DNA of 64,000 bases from Escherichia coli. GTDB lineage: Bacteria > Pseudomonadota > Gammaproteobacteria > Enterobacterales > Enterobacteriaceae. Location of the stretch: the NCBI RefSeq assembly GCF_002854065.1, contig NZ_CP024147.1; one strand, written 5' to 3'. Below are positions 1 through 18,494 of the stretch, piece after piece (positions within the stretch are counted from its first letter, which is position 1; each line of letters opens with the position of its first letter). The notes under the pieces were generated by a model. It ran no database searches. It was given only the letters and a program-made list of their open reading frames with translations, and was not told the DNA's origin. A program made the position numbers and the translations under genes.

Positions 1-126
1 AAGCAAAACTTCAGACACCTGACATATAAAAAATAATCTCGGTGTGAGATGCTTTACGTCTTCCAAGCCCCCTTCCTTGCCGTAAATGGAAAGATACATC
101 TAATTATAGAATTTATATGTTTTACC

Positions 127-702
127 CTACGGCAGTGCTGGCCATTCAATATCCTGTGCAGTTGACGTATCAACACGGTTCAGCAACACCCGATACTTTT
201 TCCAGGCTTCCAGCAATGAGGTTTCTTCCTCCGTTGCGATTTCCAGATCTACAGCATCCTGAAGTGGCGCAATATGCTCACTGGCTACCTGCATCAGGCT
301 GTTTTTTGTTTCTTCCGCCTCCCGGATCCGGAACAGTTTTTCTGCTTCTGCATCTTTCACCCAGGCTGTGCCGTTCCACTTCTGAAACTCCCCTTCCGGC
401 GATAACCAGGTAACATTTTCCGGTAACGGACCGAGTTCAGAAATAAATAACGCGTCCCCTGACGCTACGTCATAAACCGTTTTACCCCGATGGTCTTCAA
501 CGAGATGCCACGATGCCTCATCACTGTTGAAAACAGCCACAAAGCCAGCAGGAATATCTGGCGGTGCAATATCGGTACTGTTTGCTGGCAGACCTGTATG
601 AGGCGGAATATATGCATCACCTTCACCAATAAATTCATTAGTTCCGGCCAGCAGATTATAAATTTTTATGGTCCGTGGTTGTTCACTCATTCTGAATGCC
701 AT
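127..702 (-). CDS. phage tail fibre assembly protein (Tfa family)
   Basis: 191-aa ORF; recognised as lambdoid Tfa; sits immediately 3' of the tail-fibre fragment. Confidence 0.8.
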
Positions 703-1271
703 TATGCAAGCCTCACAATATAGTTAAATGCGATGTTTTTGACGGTGTTTTCCGCGTTACCAGCAGCGTTAACGGTGATGGTGTGTCCATGTGAACCAAT
801 CGCAACGGAGTGCGTATGAGCACCAATACCGACAGTATGTGCGTGTGCACCTGCGCTTGCAGCAGTGCCGGACAGTGAGTGGGTACTGGTATAATCCCAT
901 TGAATATTTACACCAGTCGCATAATTTCCGATTGCAACGTAAATATCGTAAGTATCACCAGATGTATTGACCCAGGCAAAATTTGTAAACCCTGCCGATG
1001 TGCGCTGCCATAAAGCACCAGTAATCCCCTTCGGATTACCATTACCTGCACGCAAAACAAGTTCAGATATACCTGCCTGTTGAGGTGAACCGACGTTATA
1101 TCCAGCCCCACCAATCAACGTAATTGAAACAACAGAACTCGCCTGCGGCATGGTTACCGTTGCTAATTTGAACCAACCAGCACCACCGCTGAATGACATT
1201 GTTGTTGAGTTAAGCGTACCAATATCTTTCGGTGTCAGTGTTATATCCGCTGAAAGCGCCTTACCATTCAC
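702..1271 (-). pseudogene. side tail fibre, C-terminal fragment only
   Basis: 189-aa open frame ending in the His-rich HxH tail-fibre tip motif; frame opens on GTG with no N-terminal body; lies directly after gene L. Confidence 0.6.
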
Positions 1272-1406
1272 CTTACGGGCAGAAGGTATTCACGCAGGGA
1301 AAATATCTTTCCCCCTCCGGTGTTCTCACCACGAAGCCGCACGACTCCGCTGGCGCACATCGCCGGGCGTGCGCCAGAATCGCTGATTCTGTCTCTGTCA
1401 TGGGAT

Positions 1407-2105
1407 TCACTGCGAAAGTTTGTTAATGGAAAGGAAGCCGCCAAAGTTGCCGACGTTATTGCGAAACTTACAGCCGCTCAGGCATTTGCTGCATTTATCC
1501 TTCGTGATATCGGACGTCGGCTGATCATATTCATCCGCGACCGCCGGACCGTGATAACCGCACTCATCACCGCGATAGGTCCAGGTGCAGGTGTTGGCCA
1601 GCATGATACGTCCCGGAAAAACGGCACCGTCCGTTTCCGTCGGCGTGGACAGTACAAAAGAGGCACTGACCGCGCTCAGTTCGCTGCACTGCTCGATGCG
1701 CCAGCGGCTGATCACCTCCTGCTCCGGATCGGCGTCACTGTTTCCGTTGACGAAGTTCACCGCATCCAGAAAACGGGCGTAAACCTTACGCCGGACCACC
1801 GTTCCTCCGACCAGACTCTGCAGGTCTTCCGCCATCCCGGTGACCATGCCGTGCAGGTTAGAAACCGTCAGTGTCGGACGGGCAGCACTGCCTTTGCCGT
1901 TCAGTTCAAATCCCGTCCCCTGAATGGGATACGCCTGATACTGTCGCCCCTGCCAGGTGACCGGCTCACCTTTATCGTTCTGCTCATTACAGAAAAAGTA
2001 GCGTTCCCCGCCTACCTCGGTCAGGTCGATTTCCCAGAGCACCACCTGGGCTGACTGAGTGAGGCGTGTCGTCTCATGATGTGTTTCCTGTGGAATATCC
2101 TGCAT
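1407..2105 (-). CDS. minor tail protein L (lambda gpL-like)
   Basis: 232-aa ORF closely matching lambda L as recalled (MQDI...CSKCLSGCKFRNN...INKLSQ). Confidence 0.85.
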   Translation of the reverse strand: MQDIPQETHHETTRLTQSAQVVLWEIDLTEVGGERYFFCNEQNDKGEPVTWQGRQYQAYPIQGTGFELNGKGSAARPTLTVSNLHGMVTGMAEDLQSLVGGTVVRRKVYARFLDAVNFVNGNSDADPEQEVISRWRIEQCSELSAVSASFVLSTPTETDGAVFPGRIMLANTCTWTYRGDECGYHGPAVADEYDQPTSDITKDKCSKCLSGCKFRNNVGNFGGFLSINKLSQ

Positions 2106-2114
2106 CAGAGACTC

Positions 2115-2444
2115 CTATGCCACGACCTGTTCAAAATCTGCCGTTATGGTTACCCACAACGCCCCCACGCTTGCCGACCATTTACGACAAACCACCCTGA
2201 TCGGCTTCCAGTCATAAGGTGGCGTCCACTGAAATGCGCGGACGCCACCGTGCCGTTCCAGAAAGGCTTTTAAAGATGGGTGTTCACATTTACGAACACG
2301 TATAGTCACGCTGTAAATCGACAACTGGTTATTCAGTCCCGCCGCACGACGCTGTTCATAACCATCGCCCAGCTTCACTGTCACCACTTTCGGCTCTGAT
2401 ACCACATTCATATCCGGGCGCACTTTCCAGTGAAACGTCTCCAT
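2115..2444 (-). CDS. minor tail protein M (lambda gpM-like)
   Basis: 109-aa ORF, lambda M-like, immediately upstream of L. Confidence 0.8.
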   Translation of the reverse strand: METFHWKVRPDMNVVSEPKVVTVKLGDGYEQRRAAGLNNQLSIYSVTIRVRKCEHPSLKAFLERHGGVRAFQWTPPYDWKPIRVVCRKWSASVGALWVTITADFEQVVA

Positions 2445-4648
2445 TACCGATATGCTCCACTTAACCGACCACCATCACGGGCCTGCTGTTGCATAAAGTC
2501 CGCTGCCGCTTTTTTCCCAAGGTCATAAACCACCTTCAGGGCAGCCGGACCTATCTGCCCGTTCGTGCCATCGTTATTGATCTCGATGTTGTACTGCGGG
2601 GCAAACATCGCCATACCTGAACCACCAATATCCGCCACAACCCCCAGCTTACCGTCAGCACCACGACGCAGTGGCAGAATGGCTTCAGGTCCAGCTTCCC
2701 CCATCACACCCGCGCCTTTTGCAAAAGCAAAAAACGTCGGACGGTTAACCACCGTGCCACTGTAACGACTCAAATCAGCAGACTGATAAATCCCCCCATT
2801 GGCATTCAGGGAAAGGCTGCTGAGATCAAATCCCAGTACACTGCCAATCCCTTTTATCGATTTCATCATGGTTGCCTGCGCCAGGATTTTCGCCATATCT
2901 GACAGCACCGAAGAGGTGAAGGATTTGAAGTTGAGTTTGCCGGTAGTGACAAAAGTTGCCAGGCCATTTCCCATGTTGCTGAAGGCTGATGAGAACACCT
3001 GTTCTGCTGTTCCTGCCGTATTGTCTGCATCCACGGTAAAATCCTGAAATGCACGCAGGACTCCGTTTTTCCAGTTACCCTGCACAACTTCAAGCTGTTG
3101 CCAGTAACGGCGATTCTCATTCAGTTGTCGGTTCAGGCTCTCCGTCAGCGCCTGCTCGGCCTTTCTGTAGTCATCCGTGTTATATGTCCCTTTCTGCTCA
3201 CTATCCCGCCTCAACTGCTCCAGCTGTTGCTGGTATTTCTGGCGAAGACTCAGTTGTACCTGATATCGCTGCCGCTGCTGATCACCCATACCCACCGTGG
3301 CGATATCCAGGTCATGTTGCTGACGCTGAGCGCGCTCTTCTTCAGCCAGTTGACTGGTCAGCTGAATTGTTTTTTTCTTCAGATCGTTGAGTGCCGTCTG
3401 TTTCTGAAGCTCCTGCTGTTTTACATCCAGCAGCGTCAGTGCCTGAATCAGTTCATCTTTACGGGCCAGCACACTCTTTTCATCTGCCGTCAGTTTTTTC
3501 CCGTCCAGATCGCTGATGCGCTGCTGCAGAGCCAGAAGCTGTTTATGCGCTTCTGTCATCTTTTCAGTGGCAATGCCTGCTGACTGTCTTGCAGCAGCAA
3601 TCTGTCCTTCCACCTGTGCCTGTTGCTGACTGTACTGCAGCAATAACCGGGTGGCCTCATCATTACGGGGTTCGCGTGTTTTTTTCTTACCGGATGCCAG
3701 GGCTTTCTCGTAACGTTCATTTTCACGTTGTATCGCCGCATCCCTGACAGCCTGATCGGCGTACTGCATGGCATTAATACGCGCAATTTCACGCTGATGT
3801 CGTGCTGCTTCCGTTTCATTCATCCGGTTCAGTGCAGCATTTTCAGCATTACGGCGTTTCTGTTGCTCCTGATAATTCCGCTCTGCCTGCTCTTTTGCAT
3901 CCTGCAAATCCTTCTGGCGTTTTTTCTCCTGAAGCTCGTTAAGACGCTGCTGATCGTACTCAACCTGAGAAGATGATGCCGTCCAGGGGAGTCTTTTCAC
4001 CCGCGACACTTTCTCCTGTAAAGCGGAAATCTGTTCATCCAGCGAGTCTTCACGACCAATATTCATGGCCGCATCCCAGAAACGACTCCATAAATCAGAC
4101 AGATACTTCAGCGTACTGCCCAGCGCATTGAGGTTATTATCAATATCCGCAGTACGCCGACCGGTTTCCTCTGCCAGTGCAGACATGGCTATCCGTGCCG
4201 CATCACTGGACCGCCCCTGTTCCCCAAGGACGCGTATCTGTTCAAGCTGAGTGGCAGTAAGAAAATGCAGCTCATTGTCCAGAGCCTTCGCGGCATTTAC
4301 AGGATCATCCTTCAGCCGCTTAAACTGATTTATGGTATCGCTGACCGACTGGCCAACCGATCGCTCCATCTGTGCGGCAGCTCTCGCCACCATACGGGAT
4401 GGATCATGAACAGAGTCTGCTGCCTCATGCTTCACACTAAACAGGGCTGGCCCGACATGGTGCAGGGCGTAAACGGGGTTCCCCCTGACAGTCGCAGCCA
4501 CAGGAGTGTTGGCCGCGAGGAGCCGTTTTTTTACTGTGTCCCGGTGAAGCCCAAAGGCCTCAGCGATTTTAAAAACACTCCAGTAATAAGCATCACCGAT
4601 CCCGCTCACATTTGACATAAGCAACTCCATCTGGCAGGTGAAAATCAT
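2444..4648 (-). CDS. tail tape-measure protein (lambda H-like C-terminal two thirds) with a divergent, possibly Nu1/small-terminase-derived N-terminus
   Basis: 734-aa ORF; C-terminus ...INNDGTNGQIGPAALK...RDGG resembles lambda H; N-terminal ~170 aa has an HTH-like segment; ATG at 4648. Confidence 0.65.
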   Translation of the reverse strand: MIFTCQMELLMSNVSGIGDAYYWSVFKIAEAFGLHRDTVKKRLLAANTPVAATVRGNPVYALHHVGPALFSVKHEAADSVHDPSRMVARAAAQMERSVGQSVSDTINQFKRLKDDPVNAAKALDNELHFLTATQLEQIRVLGEQGRSSDAARIAMSALAEETGRRTADIDNNLNALGSTLKYLSDLWSRFWDAAMNIGREDSLDEQISALQEKVSRVKRLPWTASSSQVEYDQQRLNELQEKKRQKDLQDAKEQAERNYQEQQKRRNAENAALNRMNETEAARHQREIARINAMQYADQAVRDAAIQRENERYEKALASGKKKTREPRNDEATRLLLQYSQQQAQVEGQIAAARQSAGIATEKMTEAHKQLLALQQRISDLDGKKLTADEKSVLARKDELIQALTLLDVKQQELQKQTALNDLKKKTIQLTSQLAEEERAQRQQHDLDIATVGMGDQQRQRYQVQLSLRQKYQQQLEQLRRDSEQKGTYNTDDYRKAEQALTESLNRQLNENRRYWQQLEVVQGNWKNGVLRAFQDFTVDADNTAGTAEQVFSSAFSNMGNGLATFVTTGKLNFKSFTSSVLSDMAKILAQATMMKSIKGIGSVLGFDLSSLSLNANGGIYQSADLSRYSGTVVNRPTFFAFAKGAGVMGEAGPEAILPLRRGADGKLGVVADIGGSGMAMFAPQYNIEINNDGTNGQIGPAALKVVYDLGKKAAADFMQQQARDGGRLSGAYR

Positions 4649-4798
4649 GTTTATTTATATATTTCAATTAATTGCAAACTGGTCTAATGACAGGGAGAAA
4701 AAAATATTGTACAGGTGAAAAGAGAAATAACTTTTAATTATCAATAAATTACCAAACATGCTGCCGCCGCCATGGAAATGCAAAAACTAGCCTTTTTC

Positions 4799-4818
4799 CG
4801 CGACGCTCCCGCCCCGTG
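4799..4818 (-). other. cos-like site (candidate cosN region)
   Basis: Minus strand reads ACGGGGCGGGAGCGTCGCGG, close to lambda cosN ACGGGGCGGCGACCTCGCGG as recalled; ~150 bp upstream of the ORF start at 4648, inside a GC-rich island. Confidence 0.4.
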
Positions 4819-4995
4819 GCAGGGGCCCCCACCGGGAGGACCCGACAGCCTGACAGCCGTGACGAGCATCTGATACAGCGCTTTACATAATGGCATAGGA
4901 ATAATTCAGAAGGACATCACAGCATGCCCACACAAATTAGTGTGAGTGTCCTGTTTCTTCCTACGCACAGGACTGACGAGCATGAGGGGAAAATA

Positions 4996-5163
4996 TGCGA
5001 ACCATAAATGCCTCATCTTCAGCAATGCAGCCGGCATCCGAACAGGACGATATTGTAAATTCACCTAATTACGAGGACATTGCAGTAGTTGAATTGCAGC
5101 TCTGTATTAGCCTGACAGTGACAGAATGCGATACTGACTCTGTCACAGGTGAAATAGTTTGAA
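4996..5163 (+). CDS. hypothetical small protein (55 aa)
   Basis: ATG preceded by GAGGGG at Shine-Dalgarno spacing; below the ORF-track cutoff; no recognised homology. Confidence 0.25.
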
Positions 5164-5182
5164 TGATTAGCAGTTATGGTGC

Positions 5183-5389
5183 TCAGTCAACCACCAGGGA
5201 ATAATCCTTCGAATTCTTATCGTGCTTCACCAACGCTGCCTCAATTGCCCTGAATGCTTCCAGAGACACCTGATGTTCTATACATGCAATTACAACATCC
5301 GGGTAACTCATAGAAATGGTGCTATTAAGCATATTTTTTACACGAATCAGATCCAACGAGAGTTCATCAGCAGATTGTTCTTTATTCAT
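5183..5389 (-). CDS. hypothetical prophage protein (68 aa)
   Basis: ATG start with GGAG Shine-Dalgarno 7 nt upstream; divergent from the DUF1398 gene. Confidence 0.5.
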
Positions 5390-5689
5390 TTTGTCGCTCC
5401 ATGCGTTTGCTCGTCATCTAGCGGTTAAAATATTACTTCAAATCTTTCTGCATAAAAGAGGAAAAGTATGAAAGTTTGAGTACATCGACCTTACATACAT
5501 CTGTCGGTTGCATATCCCTCCTGGATGCCAGCAAGGCTCAACTTTGTTACGCAATCAACACTATTCATTAAAAACAGGCTTAATATTTGACATAAATCAT
5601 CAACAAAACACAAAGAGGTCAGACCAGATTGAAACAATAAACACGATAATGCAAACTACGCGCCATCGTATCACATGGAAGGTTAACCA

Positions 5690-6100
5690 ATGGCTCAGGC
5701 TGCCATTTTTAAAGAAATATTCGATCAAGTGCGTAAAGATTTAAACTGTGAATTATTTTATTCTGAGCTAAAACGTCACAATGTCTCACTTTATATTTAC
5801 TATTTAGCCACAGATAATATTCACATTGTGTTAGAAAACGACAACATAGTGTTAGTAAAAGGACTCAAAAAGGTTGTAAATGTTAAATTCTCCAGAAACA
5901 AACATCTTATAGAGACCTCCTATAATAAGTTGAAATCAAAAGAAATCACATTTCAACAATACAGGGATAATCTTGCTAAAGCAGGAGTTTTCCGATGGGT
6001 TACAAATATCCAGGAACACCAAAGATATTACTATGCCTTTGATAACTCATTACTATTTACTGAAAGCATCCAGAAAACTACACAGATCTTACCACGCTAA
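5690..6100 (+). CDS. ydfO: DUF1398-family prophage protein (YdfO-like)
   Basis: 136-aa ORF, ATG with GGAAGG Shine-Dalgarno; position between the cos region and gnsB. Confidence 0.6.
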
Positions 6101-6251
6101 ACCATAACGTCCGGCTTCTCTCACTCCTGAGCCGGACTGCATTGGTTTAATAAAAACCATCAACAATTGTGATTTAGATATTCGGAACCATTCAAATATA
6201 ACAAAACCCCGTAAAAACGAGGTTTATGGATAAATTTTATTATTGAATACA

Positions 6252-6425
6252 TCAGATTAAATTAATCTTGACATCATAGCTTTCAAGACCCGTCATTTTT
6301 TCCCGTGCGGTAAACTGAATACTGGTAACTTCTTTCCCGGTCTTTTTCTTAAGTTCAATAATTTTTTTTGTTATATATTCAGAAATATCTGCTTCTGCTT
6401 TTGTTTTTAAGTCTTCAATATTCAT
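6252..6425 (-). CDS. gnsB: GnsB-family small protein (57 aa)
   Basis: Manual translation MNIEDLKTKAEADISEYITKKIIELKKKTGKEVTSIQFTAREKMTGLESYDVKINLI; missed by the ORF track because it is under 60 aa. Confidence 0.75.
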   Translation of the reverse strand: MNIEDLKTKAEADISEYITKKIIELKKKTGKEVTSIQFTAREKMTGLESYDVKINLI

Positions 6426-6596
6426 CATTTCCTCTTTTAGTCTGTTATGACTTTCCAGTTACACAGTAAATCGATTATATGGTGCAAACGTGTAAAAGAT
6501 AAGATGAAAAATCGCAATAATCAACATACGATAGTCTAAATTTTACACAAACAGACAAAGAGAATTTTCCTGAATTATCAATGCAATAGCATCAAA

Positions 6597-6752
6597 TCAA
6601 CTCAAGAGCCTTATTGCTGCTTCCAGAATTTCTTCTGAAGTAACATGTCGATCCGCGGCTACATAAATGACTTTATGATCTCCGGTCAGAGATGGAAACC
6701 CTGCGGCCATTACAGTAAGGTGTGTTTTTTCGCCATTTGGATATTCACGCAT
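6597..6752 (-). CDS. small prophage protein (51 aa; possibly YnfN-like)
   Basis: In-frame ATG giving MREYPNG...; longer alternatives start at 6827 (ATG) or 6869 (TTG); start uncertain. Confidence 0.4.
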   Translation of the reverse strand: MREYPNGEKTHLTVMAAGFPSLTGDHKVIYVAADRHVTSEEILEAAIRLLS

Positions 6753-6875
6753 GATGGTGTTAACTCCAGTCATCGCTGGCACTACCACTGCTGGTTCAGA
6801 GTTAAAAAAAACTATGATTTTTTTCATGATGTTACCGTAGTATGTGAGTATCCATCGAATAGACACCAAGCAAAA

Positions 6876-6900
6876 AAGCTCCCGAAGGAGCCTTCATTTT
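6876..6900 (-). terminator. rho-independent terminator-like hairpin
   Basis: Minus strand GCTCC-TTCG-GGAGC followed by TTTTTTGCTT. Confidence 0.45.
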
Positions 6901-7098
6901 CACTTTTTTAAATCCAACGACAGACGGCTGGCATTTAAGTATTGTGAAATATTATCAAATGTAATCATCATTGATTTACAAAAGATACATTTTGCCCCGA
7001 AAGGATTCATGTCAGAAACATCAAAAGATGATGTTCTATACTGGGAACCATGACAACACGGGCATCTAAAGTGAATATGGTTTGTAATATTGTCTACC

Positions 7099-7311
7099 TC
7101 AAAGCGCCACTACATGAACAGCGGCAGGACCTTTAGGTCCGTTCTCAATACCAAATTCAACTTCCTGATTCTCAGTTAATGTTTTGAAATCGTTGCTCTG
7201 AATTGCTGAGAAATGGACAAACACATCTTTGCTGCCATCTTTCGGCGTGATGAAACCAAAACCTTTTTCAGGGTTAAACCATTTCACTAAACCAGTCATT
7301 TTGTTAGACAT
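7099..7311 (-). CDS. cspI: cold shock protein CspI
   Basis: 70-aa CspA-family [26 protein letters not shown]... Confidence 0.9.
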
Positions 7312-7673
7312 AATTATTACCTTTTGAAGAAATTAGCCCTTGGGCAGAATGGTCCGAAAAAAAATATCAGAGAGAAAAACCAACAAGGAAATCCCAAGAG
7401 GTACAAATAATAAAATTATAACAATGACTGCTTCAGATAAATTTGTAACAAACCAGAACACCATTAACGCATGATTAACCACCCATAGCAAGGATTACTT
7501 TTGTAAAGAAAAACACAGCAATGAAAGAATAGCTTTATTTATTAATAAAACGTGTCATTCTGATTAAGACCTTTTATCTTACCCTTAAGATTTCAGGAAT
7601 TTTGGCTCATGGAAGAGTCCTTTTTATTTAAATTTTACATTCCGCGATGTAAATGTTCCGATTTAATATTACC

Positions 7674-8698
<1,025 letters not shown>

Positions 8699-8702
<4 letters not shown>

Positions 8703-9010
8703 AGATATTTATGATGAGGACGCTCGTGCTTATTGGCAGGATTTTCAATCTTAAAGGAGTACTGATGCTGCAGATAAGACTCAACTTTTTCTGACAATTT
8801 TTCTGCTACTTCCAGGAAGACTTGCCGGACGCTCCTTCTGGCTGCTGCCTCATAAAACTCCAGCGCAGCTCCTTCAACACGGTCCATGGCGACATCCAGG
8901 TCAAAAATTTCACCGTCAAAGCGTTCTTTGTCCTGTAAGGCTACAGTTACCGTAACTTTGTTCTCAAAATTACGGACTCCTTTCACAACCAGTTCATAGT
9001 CTTGAGTCAT
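8699..9010 (-). CDS. ydfR: prophage protein YdfR-like, located between holin and endolysin
   Basis: 103-aa ORF whose stop overlaps the endolysin start. Confidence 0.65.
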
Positions 9011-9014
9011 TGGA

Positions 9015-9230
9015 TTACTCTCCTCTCGCAGCCTTACGCCTGTCTTCTTTAATCTTGAAATAAAGATTTGTCAGATACGTCAGCAGGCCAAAAACCAGGC
9101 TACCCAGCACACCGATTGCAGCCCACTGTGACGGAGTTACTTTATCGAGTAACTGCAATGCCCAGAAACCAGCATTACCCGCCGATGTGCCATAGGCAAC
9201 ACCTGTTGTTAACTTATCCATTGATTTCAT
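9015..9230 (-). CDS. essQ: phage holin (S-like)
   Basis: 71 aa from [14 protein letters not shown]...; GAGG Shine-Dalgarno; ORF track shows a longer upstream extension. Confidence 0.8.
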
Positions 9231-9449
9231 ATCCTCACCCCGATGTACACGGATGGTGCAATATGTTTGAAAAGATCGGAGTCTACGGGGTAGTTTTGAC
9301 AGCACACGCTGTTCTCAACGGCGCTAAAGAAACATACACATTAAAAATGTGAGTAATTATTTTGAAAGAAAGTCATATATAAAATAATAATACGAGAAAT
9401 GTTTTCATATTTAGTGTACTGTATACGGCCATTTATACAGGAAAAGCCT

Positions 9450-9620
9450 ATGTCAGAACGTAAAGACTCAAAATCACGCCGTAATTATCTCGTTAAATGT
9501 TCCTGCCCAAACTGCACCCAAGAGTCAGAACACAGTTTTTCAAGAGTACAAAAAGGTGCCCTTTTGATCTGCCCTCATTGCAACAAAGTATTCCAGACAA
9601 ATCTTAAAGCTGCAGCCTGA
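9450..9620 (+). CDS. small zinc-ribbon protein (CxxC...CxxC), 56 aa
   Basis: ATG at 9450 with AGGAAA Shine-Dalgarno; cysteine pairs CPNC and CPHC; followed by a terminator. Confidence 0.5.
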   Translation: MSERKDSKSRRNYLVKCSCPNCTQESEHSFSRVQKGALLICPHCNKVFQTNLKAAA

Positions 9621-9680
9621 TTGATTTTATTAGTAACAAGTATTTTTTATATTTTAATAATATATTTAAAGTAGATAATA

Positions 9681-9702
9681 AAAAACCCGCCTGAGCGGGT
9701 TT
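9681..9702. terminator. bidirectional intrinsic terminator-like hairpin
   Basis: AAAAA-CCCGC-CTGA-GCGGG-TTT between convergent genes. Confidence 0.5.
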
Positions 9703-9983
9703 GAGATTGTGGTGCTTTTTGTGGGAGTCATCCACTTACGCACTTTGTTTTGCCATGCCAGCAGTTAGCTTCTGCTGTAAAACTATTCATGCCGCAAACC
9801 TGCACTTCACCACAATGGTTAGCATACTTTTCCTGATTAAGATTTTGCCAAATATGCTGGCCATTGTTTCATGTATTGGACCTCCTTAATTTTTATTAAA
9901 GAAATCCAATATTCACTACTCTGTCCGTATCTCTACTCAGGCATCAGCCTTCTTCGTTATCGTATACAGACGAGCGATGAATT

Positions 9984-10199
9984 TTAATCAGTAATGATGA
10001 CATTTGCTGCTGCAGGACCTTTAGCACCACTCTCTATAGAGAAGGTAACCTTTTGACCTTCAAATAAGGTTCGATAATTATCATTCTGAATCGCAGAAAA
10101 ATGCACAAACACATCTTTACTACCATCAACAGGAGAAATAAAGCCGAAACCTTTATCAGCGTTAAACCATTTTACTAAACCAGTCATTTTATTTGACAT
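9984..10199 (-). CDS. cspB: cold shock protein CspB
   Basis: 71-aa CspA-family [26 protein letters not shown]... Confidence 0.9.
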
Positions 10200-10509
10200 T
10201 CTACATTCCTTAACTTGAGCCTTTCGGCATAAATGGTTTGCATAACAGAAACGACTTCGTACTTAATTGGAGAGACTCAAAGAAGGAATAAGTGAATAAC
10301 ACCTGAAATGAGAACTGCTTTAGTAAACTACTTCGTATATCGTCTGTTCTTCAAACCGACGCAGTCATTAACTCATAGTTGAACATATGAAGCAATGTTT
10401 ATTTTAGACATCCAGCCACCTTCAACCCTATCAAAAAAGTAGTTTTCTCCAGGAACGTGTGTATGGTGCACCAGGTTATCAGTATTAAGGAGTTTTTCTG
10501 TCCCCTAAA

Positions 10510-10715
10510 ATGACAGGAATTGTCAAAAACTTTGACTACAAAAGCAGCAAAGGTCTTATATCCCCATCCGATGGCGTATCGATGCCCAGCTTCAGGTTTC
10601 AGCTCTCAATCTTCGAGATGCAGAAGAAATTACCACAGGATTACGCGTGGAATTTTGCCGGATAAATGGTTCGCGTGGACCTTCAACTCCCAATGTTTAT
10701 CCTGGGATGAGATTC
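10510..10715 (+). pseudogene. cspF: cspF-like cold shock gene, frameshifted
   Basis: [22 protein letters not shown] in frame 1; homology continues as [32 protein letters not shown] in the -1 frame; one base missing around 10573-10578; original stop lost. Confidence 0.65.
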
Positions 10716-10874: not shown

Positions 10875-12508
<1,634 letters not shown>

Positions 12509-12516
12509 CCACTACA

Positions 12517-12852
12517 GTTTTTCAACCTGAAGTGTCAGCGAGAGTAAAAAATTATGGTGACCATTTTACCGTTGACTCAATAAGGCAGATGTGGGACGCA
12601 GCGATAAAACGTGCCGGACTCCGCCATTGAAAATCATATCAGTCGAGACATACTTATGCCTGCTGGTCGCTGACAGCTGGTGCTAACCCGGCATTTATAG
12701 CAAACCAGATGGGCCATGCAGATGCGCAAATGGTATTTCAGGTATACGGAAAATGGATGTCTGAAAACAATAATGCACAGGTAGCTTTGTTAAATACACA
12801 GTTAAGCGAGTTTGCCCCAACCATGCCCCATAACGAAGCAATGAAAAATTAA
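12517..12852 (+). pseudogene. phage tyrosine integrase, 3' remnant
   Basis: Open frame 12631-12852 encodes ...RHTYACWSLTAGANPAFIANQMGHADAQMVFQVYGKWM...; in-frame TGA at 12628; begins at the IS right end. Confidence 0.55.
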
Positions 12853-13039
12853 TTTAATATTTATCAAATAGTTGACACGTATGACTCTTGAAATCCATAA
12901 ATTCAAGCGCAGTGCCCAGCCATCCCGATACTGCTGCTTTCACCAAATCCTTAGTGCTTCTTTCGTGTTTTTCTATTGTCATAATGGTTATCTCTAAAAA
13001 AGAGGTAAGATGCGTACTACTTACTCGCCGTTATTGGTA

Positions 13040-14059
13040 TTATTCAGAAAAAGTGAGTAAGACTTTGCAGCAATGTTTTTGATCCTGTTCAAATAAACTA
13101 ATGGCATCAGCAACATGCTGGAAATCAAACGTATGGGTAATTAATTTTTCTGGTTTAATTAACCCTTTACTTAACCAGTCGATAACGACCGGAAATTTAT
13201 TTGCATTTAAGCGTGAAGAGAAAATAGATAGTTCTTTTCCGGTAATTCCTTGCTGAATCACTTCAGAAGGTTCACTGGAGAAGCCCATCAATACAATACG
13301 TGCCGCTGGAGAAGCCAGCGTTACGGCCTCTTTCAGGATAGAAGGATGACAAGCCGCATCAATAATTAATGTCGGCTTTATGCCTTTTTCAGCGAAAATC
13401 TCGCCAAGCGGTGTCTGGCTGTTATTAATCACCCAGTCAGCCCCGCTCTCTTTCGCTTTTTCCAGTCGTTCATCAATGCGATCGGCAACAATCACATTTT
13501 TAACGTTATAGACGCCTTTTAATACCTGAACGATCGTCAGGCCGATTGGACCGGCACCGTAAACCAGAACGGTATCATTTTCAGTCGGTTGACCATGACC
13601 GGTTACGTTAGCCGCAATGGTAAAAGGTTCGATCATCACCGCATATTGATCGGCCACTGCTTCAGGAATTTTCCACGCATTTTTTGCCGGAACCACAGCA
13701 TATTCACTGAAACCACCGTCAGCGTGCACACCTAATACAGCGAGTGTCGTACAAACGTTCGGCTTACCTATAGAGCACGGATAGCAATGACCACAGCTGA
13801 CCACCGGATCGACAGCAACACGTTCACCGACTCTGGCGCTTTCCACACCTTCACCCACCACATCAATGACGCCAAAGAATTCATGTCCAATGACGCGCGG
13901 ATATTTCGCAAAAGGATTATGCCCACGATAAATATGGCTATCTGAACCACAAATTCCGGCAAGTTTCACTTTTACTCGTACTTCACCCGCTGACGGGGTG
14001 GGTATTTCACGTTCGACAATCGCCAGTTGATTCGGTTTTTCAATTAATATGCTTTTCAT
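13040..14059 (-). CDS. rspB: starvation-sensing protein RspB (Zn-dependent dehydrogenase)
   Basis: 339-aa ORF from MKSILIEK with AAGGAG Shine-Dalgarno; ORF-track start is extended. Confidence 0.9.
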   Translation of the reverse strand: MKSILIEKPNQLAIVEREIPTPSAGEVRVKVKLAGICGSDSHIYRGHNPFAKYPRVIGHEFFGVIDVVGEGVESARVGERVAVDPVVSCGHCYPCSIGKPNVCTTLAVLGVHADGGFSEYAVVPAKNAWKIPEAVADQYAVMIEPFTIAANVTGHGQPTENDTVLVYGAGPIGLTIVQVLKGVYNVKNVIVADRIDERLEKAKESGADWVINNSQTPLGEIFAEKGIKPTLIIDAACHPSILKEAVTLASPAARIVLMGFSSEPSEVIQQGITGKELSIFSSRLNANKFPVVIDWLSKGLIKPEKLITHTFDFQHVADAISLFEQDQKHCCKVLLTFSE

Positions 14060-17163: not shown

Positions 17164-17174
17164 TGGATTTGCCC

Positions 17175-18080
17175 CTATATTTCCAGACATCTGTTATCAC
17201 TTAACCCATTACAAGCCCGCTGCCGCAGATATTCCCGTGGCGAGCGATAACCCAGCGCACTATGCGGATGCCATTCGTTATAATGCTCGAACGCCTCTGC
17301 AAGGTTCTTTGCTGCCGTTAACCCGTCTGGTTTGGGCATGATACTGATGTAGTCACGCTTTATCGTTTTCACGAAGCTCTCTGCTATTCCGTTACTCTCC
17401 GGACTCCGCACCGCCGTGTTCTTCGGTTCAAGTCCCAACATCCGGGCGAACTGGCGTGTTTCATTAGCCCGGTAGCATGAACCATTATCCGTCAGCCACT
17501 CCACTGGAGACGACGGAAGATCGTTGCCGAAGCGGCGTTCCACCGCTCCCAGCATGACGTCCTGTACTGTTTCACTGTTGAAGCCGCCGGTAGTGACCGC
17601 CCAGTGCAGTGCCTCACGATCACAGCAGTCCAGCGCGAACGTGACACGCAGTCTCTCTCCGTTATCACAGCAGAACTCGAACCCGTCAGAGCACCATCGC
17701 TGATTGCTTTCTTTCACGGCCACTCTGCCTGTATGTGCCCGTTTCGATGGCGGTACAGCAGGTTTTCGCTCAAGCAACAGCGCATTCTGGCGCATGATCC
17801 GGTAAACACGTTTGGCATTGATCGCAGGCATACCATCAAGTTCTGCCTGTCTGCGAAGCAGCGCCCATACCCGACGATAACCATACGTGGGCAGCTCTCC
17901 GATAACATGGTGTATACGGAGAAGCACATCCGTATCATCAGTGTGACGACTGCGGCGGCCATCCATCCAGTCATCGGTTCGTCTGAGAATGACGTGCAAC
18001 TGCGCACGCGACACCCGGAGACAACGGCTGACTAAGCTTACTCCCCATCCCCGGGCAATAAGGGCGCGTGCGCTATCCAC
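17175..18080 (-). CDS. insD: IS2 transposase InsD (OrfB)
   Basis: 301-aa ORF. Confidence 0.9.
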
Positions 18081-18403
18081 TTTTTTGCCCGTCCATATTC
18101 AACGGCTTCTTTGAGGAGTTCATTTTCCATCGTTTTCTTGCCGAGCAGGCGCTGGAGTTCTTTAATCTGCTTCATGGCGGCAGCAAGTTCAGAGGCAGGA
18201 ACAACCTGTTCTCCGGCGGCGACAGCAGTAAGACTTCCTTCCTGGTATTGCTTACGCCAGAGAAATAACTGGCTGGCTGCTACACCATGTTGCCGGGCAA
18301 CGAGGGAGACCGTCATCCCCGGTTCAAAGCTCTGCTGAACAATTGCGATCTTTTCCTGTGTGGTACGCCGTCTGCGTTTCTCCGGCCCTAAGACATCAAT
18401 CAT
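18038..18403 (-). CDS. insC: IS2 transposase InsC (OrfA)
   Basis: 121 aa from [18 protein letters not shown]... Confidence 0.9.
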
Positions 18404-18494
18404 CTGTTCTCCAATGACTAGTCTAAAAACTAGTATTAAGACTATCACTTATTTAAGTGATATTGGTTGTCTGGAGATTCAGGGGGCCAGTCTA

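Follow-up and report, generated by a model that had tools for sequence, protein, structure and literature searches.

Background

The closest described relative of the locus considered here is the cryptic prophage Qin of Escherichia coli K-12, the right end of which reads intQ-ynfP-rspB. Ramisetty and Sudhakari (PMC6379469) found Qin inserted at the 5' end of ydfJ, with 28 codons removed, in 48% of strains. The same gene is a recognised site of prophage clusters in O157:H7 and other STEC, according to Nakamura et al. (PMC8112680), where the STEC and EPEC prophages concerned (PPydfJ) appear as large, often clustered prophages with effector or Stx genes. The att sequence of the ydfJ prophages was published in 2021, when the S7 Fig legend of that paper defined an 18- or 19-bp att by way of the excised attP; an attP PCR product is recorded there for the ydfJ prophage of strain 11368.

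The same integration module, in which xis and int are followed by attP, occurs in a number of free lambdoid phages, namely mEp460_ev081 (LR597641.1), PhiR42_1, HannyBb and Tritos, and the phage records show no further gene between the integrase and attP and place the excisionase just upstream of the integrase. Phages of the mEp460_ev081 type have complete genomes of 45-49 kb and an intact integrase. In phage lambda, int lies beside the P' arm of attP and attR and the IHF H' site lies beside the core, and integration proceeds by Int-catalysed strand exchange within the core, aided by IHF bending of the arm.

The junction between prophage and chromosome

The window, i.e. the whole stretch of 64,000 nucleotides of E. 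coli DNA that was analysed, contains a decayed prophage of this kind next to rspB. The first-pass annotation had suggested a prophage-chromosome junction in the 187 bp between the end of an integrase stub at 12852 and the end of rspB at 13040, and its coordinates were right: the integrase reading frame stops with TAA at 12850-12852 and the rspB stop codon, on the minus strand, occupies 13040-13042. The boundary between phage and chromosome was placed by comparing the window with three kinds of site: an empty one, the left junctions of three strains (K-12 among them) and the attP of mEp460_ev081. It lies at 12889/12890, 37 bp past the integrase stop, leaving 150 bp of chromosomal DNA to complete the interval. 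From these alignments the interval is very probably (at a probability of about 0.97) the attR left by a decayed lambdoid prophage of the Qin type (mEp460-like) in ydfJ. The features of the junction are collected in Table 1.

Table 1. Features at and around the right prophage-chromosome junction (window coordinates)
Feature	Position	Strand	Basis or remark
IS3-family element, 1258 bp, ends TGTAGTGG...CCACTACA	11259..12516	+	identical copies bear the label "IS3 family transposase" in numerous E. coli genomes
Integrase 3' stub, codons 321-431 of a 431-aa tyrosine integrase	12517..12852	+	translation compared with the intact integrase of an O103:H2 strain (L005)
Phage-derived attR arm	12853..12889	none	37/37 identical to mEp460_ev081 attP; unrelated to the empty site
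Chimeric 42-aa ORF, YdfJ residues 1-31 plus 11 phage-arm codons	12854..12982	-	homologue of K-12 ynfP (b4534, 36 aa)
IHF consensus WATCAANNNNTTR, perfect match (TATCAAATAGTTG)	12862..12874	+	15 bp from the core; sequence match
att common core GAAATCCATAA, 11 bp	12890..12900	none	exact in attB, attP, attL and attR
ydfJ 5' fragment (MHS-family MFS transporter), codons 1-31	12890..12982	-	identical to intact ydfJ of strain GF66.1
rspB-ydfJ spacer, 57 bp, wholly chromosomal	12983..13039	none	same in occupied and empty sites
rspB (Zn-dependent oxidoreductase), first intact chromosomal gene	13040..14059	-	maps onto K-12 b1580

An unoccupied version of the site is found in strain GF66.1 (L002), which has an intact ydfJ of 455 codons with its start 57 bp from rspB, and alignment with this empty site, the check proposed in the first pass, helped to define the 11-bp core. 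The core covers ydfJ codons 26-31 (L-E-F-M-D-F), which makes the site intragenic. The attB of GF66.1 reads ...taactg GAAATCCATAA attcaagcg... and the attP of the free phages mEp460_ev081 and PhiR42_1 reads ...gactctt GAAATCCATAA ttcacaggtg.... The window consists of the left side of attP, the core and the right side of attB, and is therefore read as attR, while the left junctions of K-12, CUWW06 and CM128593.1 consist of the left side of attB, the core and the right side of attP, the right half of the free-phage attP being the phage arm of the left junctions. Alignment of the window with an empty site and a left junction shows the 11-bp core in each of the three, with the flanks swapping partners there. 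The core lies in all four att sites between flanks that recombine reciprocally.

The identities on the two sides of the boundary are close to complete. On the phage side, 372 of the 373 positions at 12517-12889 are identical to the attP half of mEp460_ev081, and on the chromosomal side all 150 positions at 12890-13039 are identical to the empty site. With the partners exchanged as a control, the sequence to the left of 12889 matched the empty site at only 25 of 100 positions and that to the right of the core matched the phage attP at only 31 of 100; set against 150/150 and 372/373, these figures indicate that the junction is no chance feature. Around the core, attP and attB differ by T vs G just to its left and by a 1-nt A indel on its right, and each junction carries the version of the partner that supplied that flank, which places the crossover within 12890-12900. 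With these variable positions included, an extended, imperfect att of 18 or 19 bp can be drawn at 12887-12905, CTTGAAATCCATAAATTCA, of the form CT(T/G)GAAATCCATAA(A)TTCA.

The first pass had spoken of an attachment-site remnant in the 187 bp between the two genes. An attachment site is indeed present in the interval, but it lies inside ydfJ and not in an intergenic spacer, and the attR half-site is not degraded, as its sequence is found unchanged in the living phage and in lysogens whose integrase is intact.

One might suppose instead that the junction was made by an IS-mediated or other illegitimate rearrangement and that the interval holds no att site at all. The region is certainly rich in IS elements: an IS2 sits in ynfC, and the IS3-family element next to the integrase stub lacks a target duplication. 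However, 373 bp separate the IS3-family element from the junction to its right; thousands of genomes whose integrase is intact have the same junction, base for base, and it joins the left side of attP to the right side of attB as these are found in a living phage. The four-way att comparison refuted this reading, and its probability is negligible. The IS2 itself is full-length (1331 bp, 17164-18494) with a 5-bp duplication, ATCAT, and over 706 bp it has 100% identity to the IS2E fragment found in K-12 Qin.

A second consideration is whether the junction might be internal to a tandem prophage cluster, with phage DNA continuing past it. Such clusters occur at ydfJ in O157:H7 (PMC8112680), and a junction of attP type, in which an integrase is followed by the core and then by a phage arm, was met in the chromosome of O157:H7 strain NE1127. 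At the present locus, however, the sequence continues from the core into the 5' end of ydfJ, the spacer, rspB, rspA, ynfA, ynfB and speG, all of it 98-100% identical to the empty site and to K-12. Immediately beyond the core, on its right, the match to the empty site is complete. This refutes a tandem-array junction, for which the likelihood is vanishingly small, and it equally disposes of the possibility, foreseen in the first pass, of prophage sequence running on beyond 13040. The junction in NE1127 (L004, 4053-4160) has the integrase 3' end, the core and the other phage arm, after which comes a DinI-like gene; it is the tandem or clustered ydfJ-prophage arrangement that Nakamura et al. described in 2021.

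The reading of the interval as attR also draws on the gene beside it. The stub corresponds to the last 111 residues of the integrase that is intact in the O103:H2 strain and matches the Pfam family PF00589 (Phage_integrase) above the cut-off, at 31.7 bits; its intact relatives, of 426-431 aa, have Arm-DNA-bind_2 and Phage_integrase domains. A tyrosine recombinase gene thus adjoins the core, and the first-pass view that the integrase is the terminal prophage gene at the junction held, the integrase being the last gene before att as it is in the phage records. The arm between its stop and the core carries a perfect match to the IHF consensus, which gives a predicted IHF site in the arm beside the core; matches to WATCAANNNNTTR on both strands of the 64 kb numbered 9 against 3.1 expected. 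The arms of the O157 (L004) and O103 (L005) loci, though diverged in other respects, keep the consensus as TATCAATTAGTTA. A search for arm-type integrase-binding repeats gave no convincing repeated motif in 12650-12910 or in the equivalent stretch of the O103 locus.

Sequence comparison establishes the boundary, the core, where each flank came from and the integrase defects, and a very probable course of events can be proposed to account for them. A tyrosine integrase would have recombined the phage attP with attB in ydfJ codons 26-31 by site-specific recombination, possibly with the use of IHF. The crossover fell inside the 11-bp core; to its left remained the integrase gene with 37 bp of phage arm, and to its right ydfJ codons 1-31, the spacer of 57 bp and rspB. 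The insertion split ydfJ and would have parted its start and the upstream rspA-rspB from the body of the gene and from ydfI, presumably with loss of ydfJ function; it also produced a small chimeric reading frame of the ynfP type. Since then, a nonsense mutation in the integrase, removal of its first 320 codons by the IS3-family element and loss of the excisionase and early region have fixed the prophage in place.

Relationship to known systems and occupancy of the site

The right end of the window prophage resembles that of K-12 Qin in its insertion in the 5' part of ydfJ beside rspB, in the 11-bp core and in the order int-att-ynfP-rspB, and the integrase stub with its arm is 99.2% identical. 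The RefSeq annotation of K-12 gives the feature "cryptic prophage Qin" as 1632277..1652745, and its end at 1652745 corresponds to window position 12889 when the offset is fixed by rspB. Gene content is collinear with Qin apart from one deletion of 9.5 kb and one additional block of 4.7 kb. In K-12 an IS2 fragment precedes intQ, whereas the window has one IS3-family element replacing about 9.5 kb; Qin also lacks the tail genes of 886-5611, and its ynfP is of 36 aa against 42 in the window.

The resemblance to the free mEp460_ev081-type phages extends through the integration module, although the window holds a remnant. With the PPydfJ elements of STEC and EPEC the locus shares its chromosomal position and its kind of att, the 19 bp of the window fitting the length reported in the S7 Fig legend, and from that length (18/19 bp) and the locus the att of the window is probably the att of Nakamura et al. 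It differs from them in that those are large and often clustered prophages with effector or Stx genes, and in that the integrase-side arm has diverged, the O103:H2 example being 75.7% identical over the 37-bp arm. The likeness to phage lambda is one of layout: the 3' end of the integrase gene is turned towards the core, an IHF consensus lies between the integrase stop and the core, and a short core is common to all four att sites. The core sequence and the target gene are different, and the insertion in the window is intragenic and disrupts the gene.

How widespread this junction is was assessed by a megablast search of 5,426 complete E. coli genomes with window positions 12780-13200 as query. 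At least 80% of the query, i.e. the junction of int, core and ydfJ 5' fragment, was covered in 2657 of the 5426 genomes, about half, in agreement with the 48% of Ramisetty and Sudhakari (PMC6379469). Among the matches listed for these 2657 genomes, nearly all were of full coverage and annotated with an integrase and rspB. Among the listed genomes annotated with ydfJ and rspB, the match begins at query base 108-111, which is window 12887-12890.

Decay of the prophage and its other end

The integrase gene carries more than one lesion. An in-frame TGA at 12628-12630 stands where phage mEp460_ev081 has CGA, and this C to T change at 12628 is the sole difference from the phage across the 373 bp. 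As CUWW06 has the same stop with no IS at that place, the nonsense mutation is older than the IS insertion. The IS3-family element cuts the integrase gene on its right (12516/12517) and an antiterminator gene, the ydfT/quuQ homologue, on its left; its flanks are TAC and GTT, with no target duplication, which points to an IS-associated deletion. The junction of this element with the integrase was covered by no complete E. coli genome in the collection searched. It was observed, with the flanks taken as 10875-11258 and from 12517, that the element stands in for about 9.5 kb of Qin.

Relative to K-12 Qin, the part lost extends from inside ydfT/quuQ to integrase codon 320 and includes relBE, hokD, dicA/C/F/B and xis. 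The tfaQ/stfQ genes, the block from ydfO to cspF, part of ydfT and the 3' end of intQ are retained in the same order and are 96.8-98.7% identical. Because the integrase has a stop codon, has been cut by the IS3-family element and is accompanied by a deleted excisionase gene, the prophage is unable to excise by its own means. The tail-gene block at 886-5611 is lambda-like and is absent from K-12 Qin; it contains a tail fibre fragment, tail protein L, minor tail protein M and a 5'-truncated tape-measure protein, and has 99.9% identity to the corresponding DNA in CM128593.1.

The first pass had anticipated that the matching repeat would be found outside the window, and this was borne out. A search of the 64 kb for the core, exact and with up to 2 mismatches, gave only the copy at 12890, plus a 2-mismatch match at 9901 of the kind expected by chance, and no part of the remainder of ydfJ or of ydfI is present in the window. 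Positions 1-10703 are collinear with contig CM128593.1 at 99.94% identity, and the left junction of that contig, made up of ydfJ from codon 32 on, the core and a phage arm, is 1,894 bp farther out than the point corresponding to window position 1. By comparison with this relative, the left end in the source genome would lie about 1.9 kb outside the window, the prophage remnant would amount to about 14.8 kb, and the left junction is expected to read ...cctgtgaa TTATGGATTTC cagttatattcgc... joined to ydfJ from codon 32 onward, and pinQ, ydfK and ynfT would lie between it and window position 1. In two of the loci compared, L007 (that of CM128593.1) and L008, a truncated ydfJ body beside the left junction, at about 12598-13881, has no called gene; in the remaining six loci gene calling gives the ydfJ body as a 427-aa product, and L007 and L008 may hold further disruption.

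An attL of the type belonging to this remnant is known from the near-identical genome over about 50 bp of its phage arm. It is conceivable, if rather doubtful, that both att sites of the remnant are still fully functional and that the remnant could be excised in trans by Int and Xis of the mEp460 type, restoring ydfJ. In that event Int and Xis from a superinfecting or co-resident phage would rejoin rspA-rspB-ydfJ-ydfI, and the "dead" prophage would be a reversible switch.

The ynfP-type reading frame

The counterpart of K-12 ynfP is read from the minus strand: its start codon is that of ydfJ, 57 bp past rspB, and its end lies in the phage arm. The first 34 residues of the two are identical, followed by A35T, and within 12854-12871 the window has CAA where K-12 has TAA, by which the ORF is six codons longer. 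The tail of the ORF is set purely by the phage arm and its length varies between lineages. The exact 42-aa product was present in 42,010 blocks of the assembly index and is a very common form; in the look-up its contexts had only intact integrases or other IS elements.

A further question is whether the interval, besides being an attachment site, holds an independent functional element, either a regulatory RNA or a small protein of the YnfP type that is translated. The ORF still begins at the original ydfJ start codon, and rspB is immediately upstream of it with no terminator-like site between the two, and ynfP is an annotated gene in K-12, where its deletion mutant was found to be slower to recover from nitrogen starvation (PMC7417836). 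The same study, however, terms ynfP "possibly fragmented", and the phenotype of the deletion could come from an effect on neighbouring genes. There were no Pfam or Rfam matches, and the C-terminus, being 36 or 42 aa from the start according to lineage, is an accident of the phage arm. A permissive Rfam scan of 12400-13200 gave no matches, a scan of 12500-13300 found no terminators, including any that would separate the ynfP-type ORF from rspB, and promoter-like matches in 12500-13300 occurred at the rate of shuffled sequence, with none above background. A function of this kind is considered unlikely.

Implications

The junction is well known and already annotated, and the finding is correct but ordinary, with little import beyond correct annotation. 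It does fix the boundary to the base, and it identifies most of the apparently "intergenic" gap as the start of ydfJ, cut off from the rest of the gene and read as ynfP. The reasons why the prophage copy in the window cannot excise are documented as well. The locus is a known integration hotspot of E. coli, used among others by phages that carry effector and Stx genes, and exact att coordinates should aid the comparison of its occupancy between strains.
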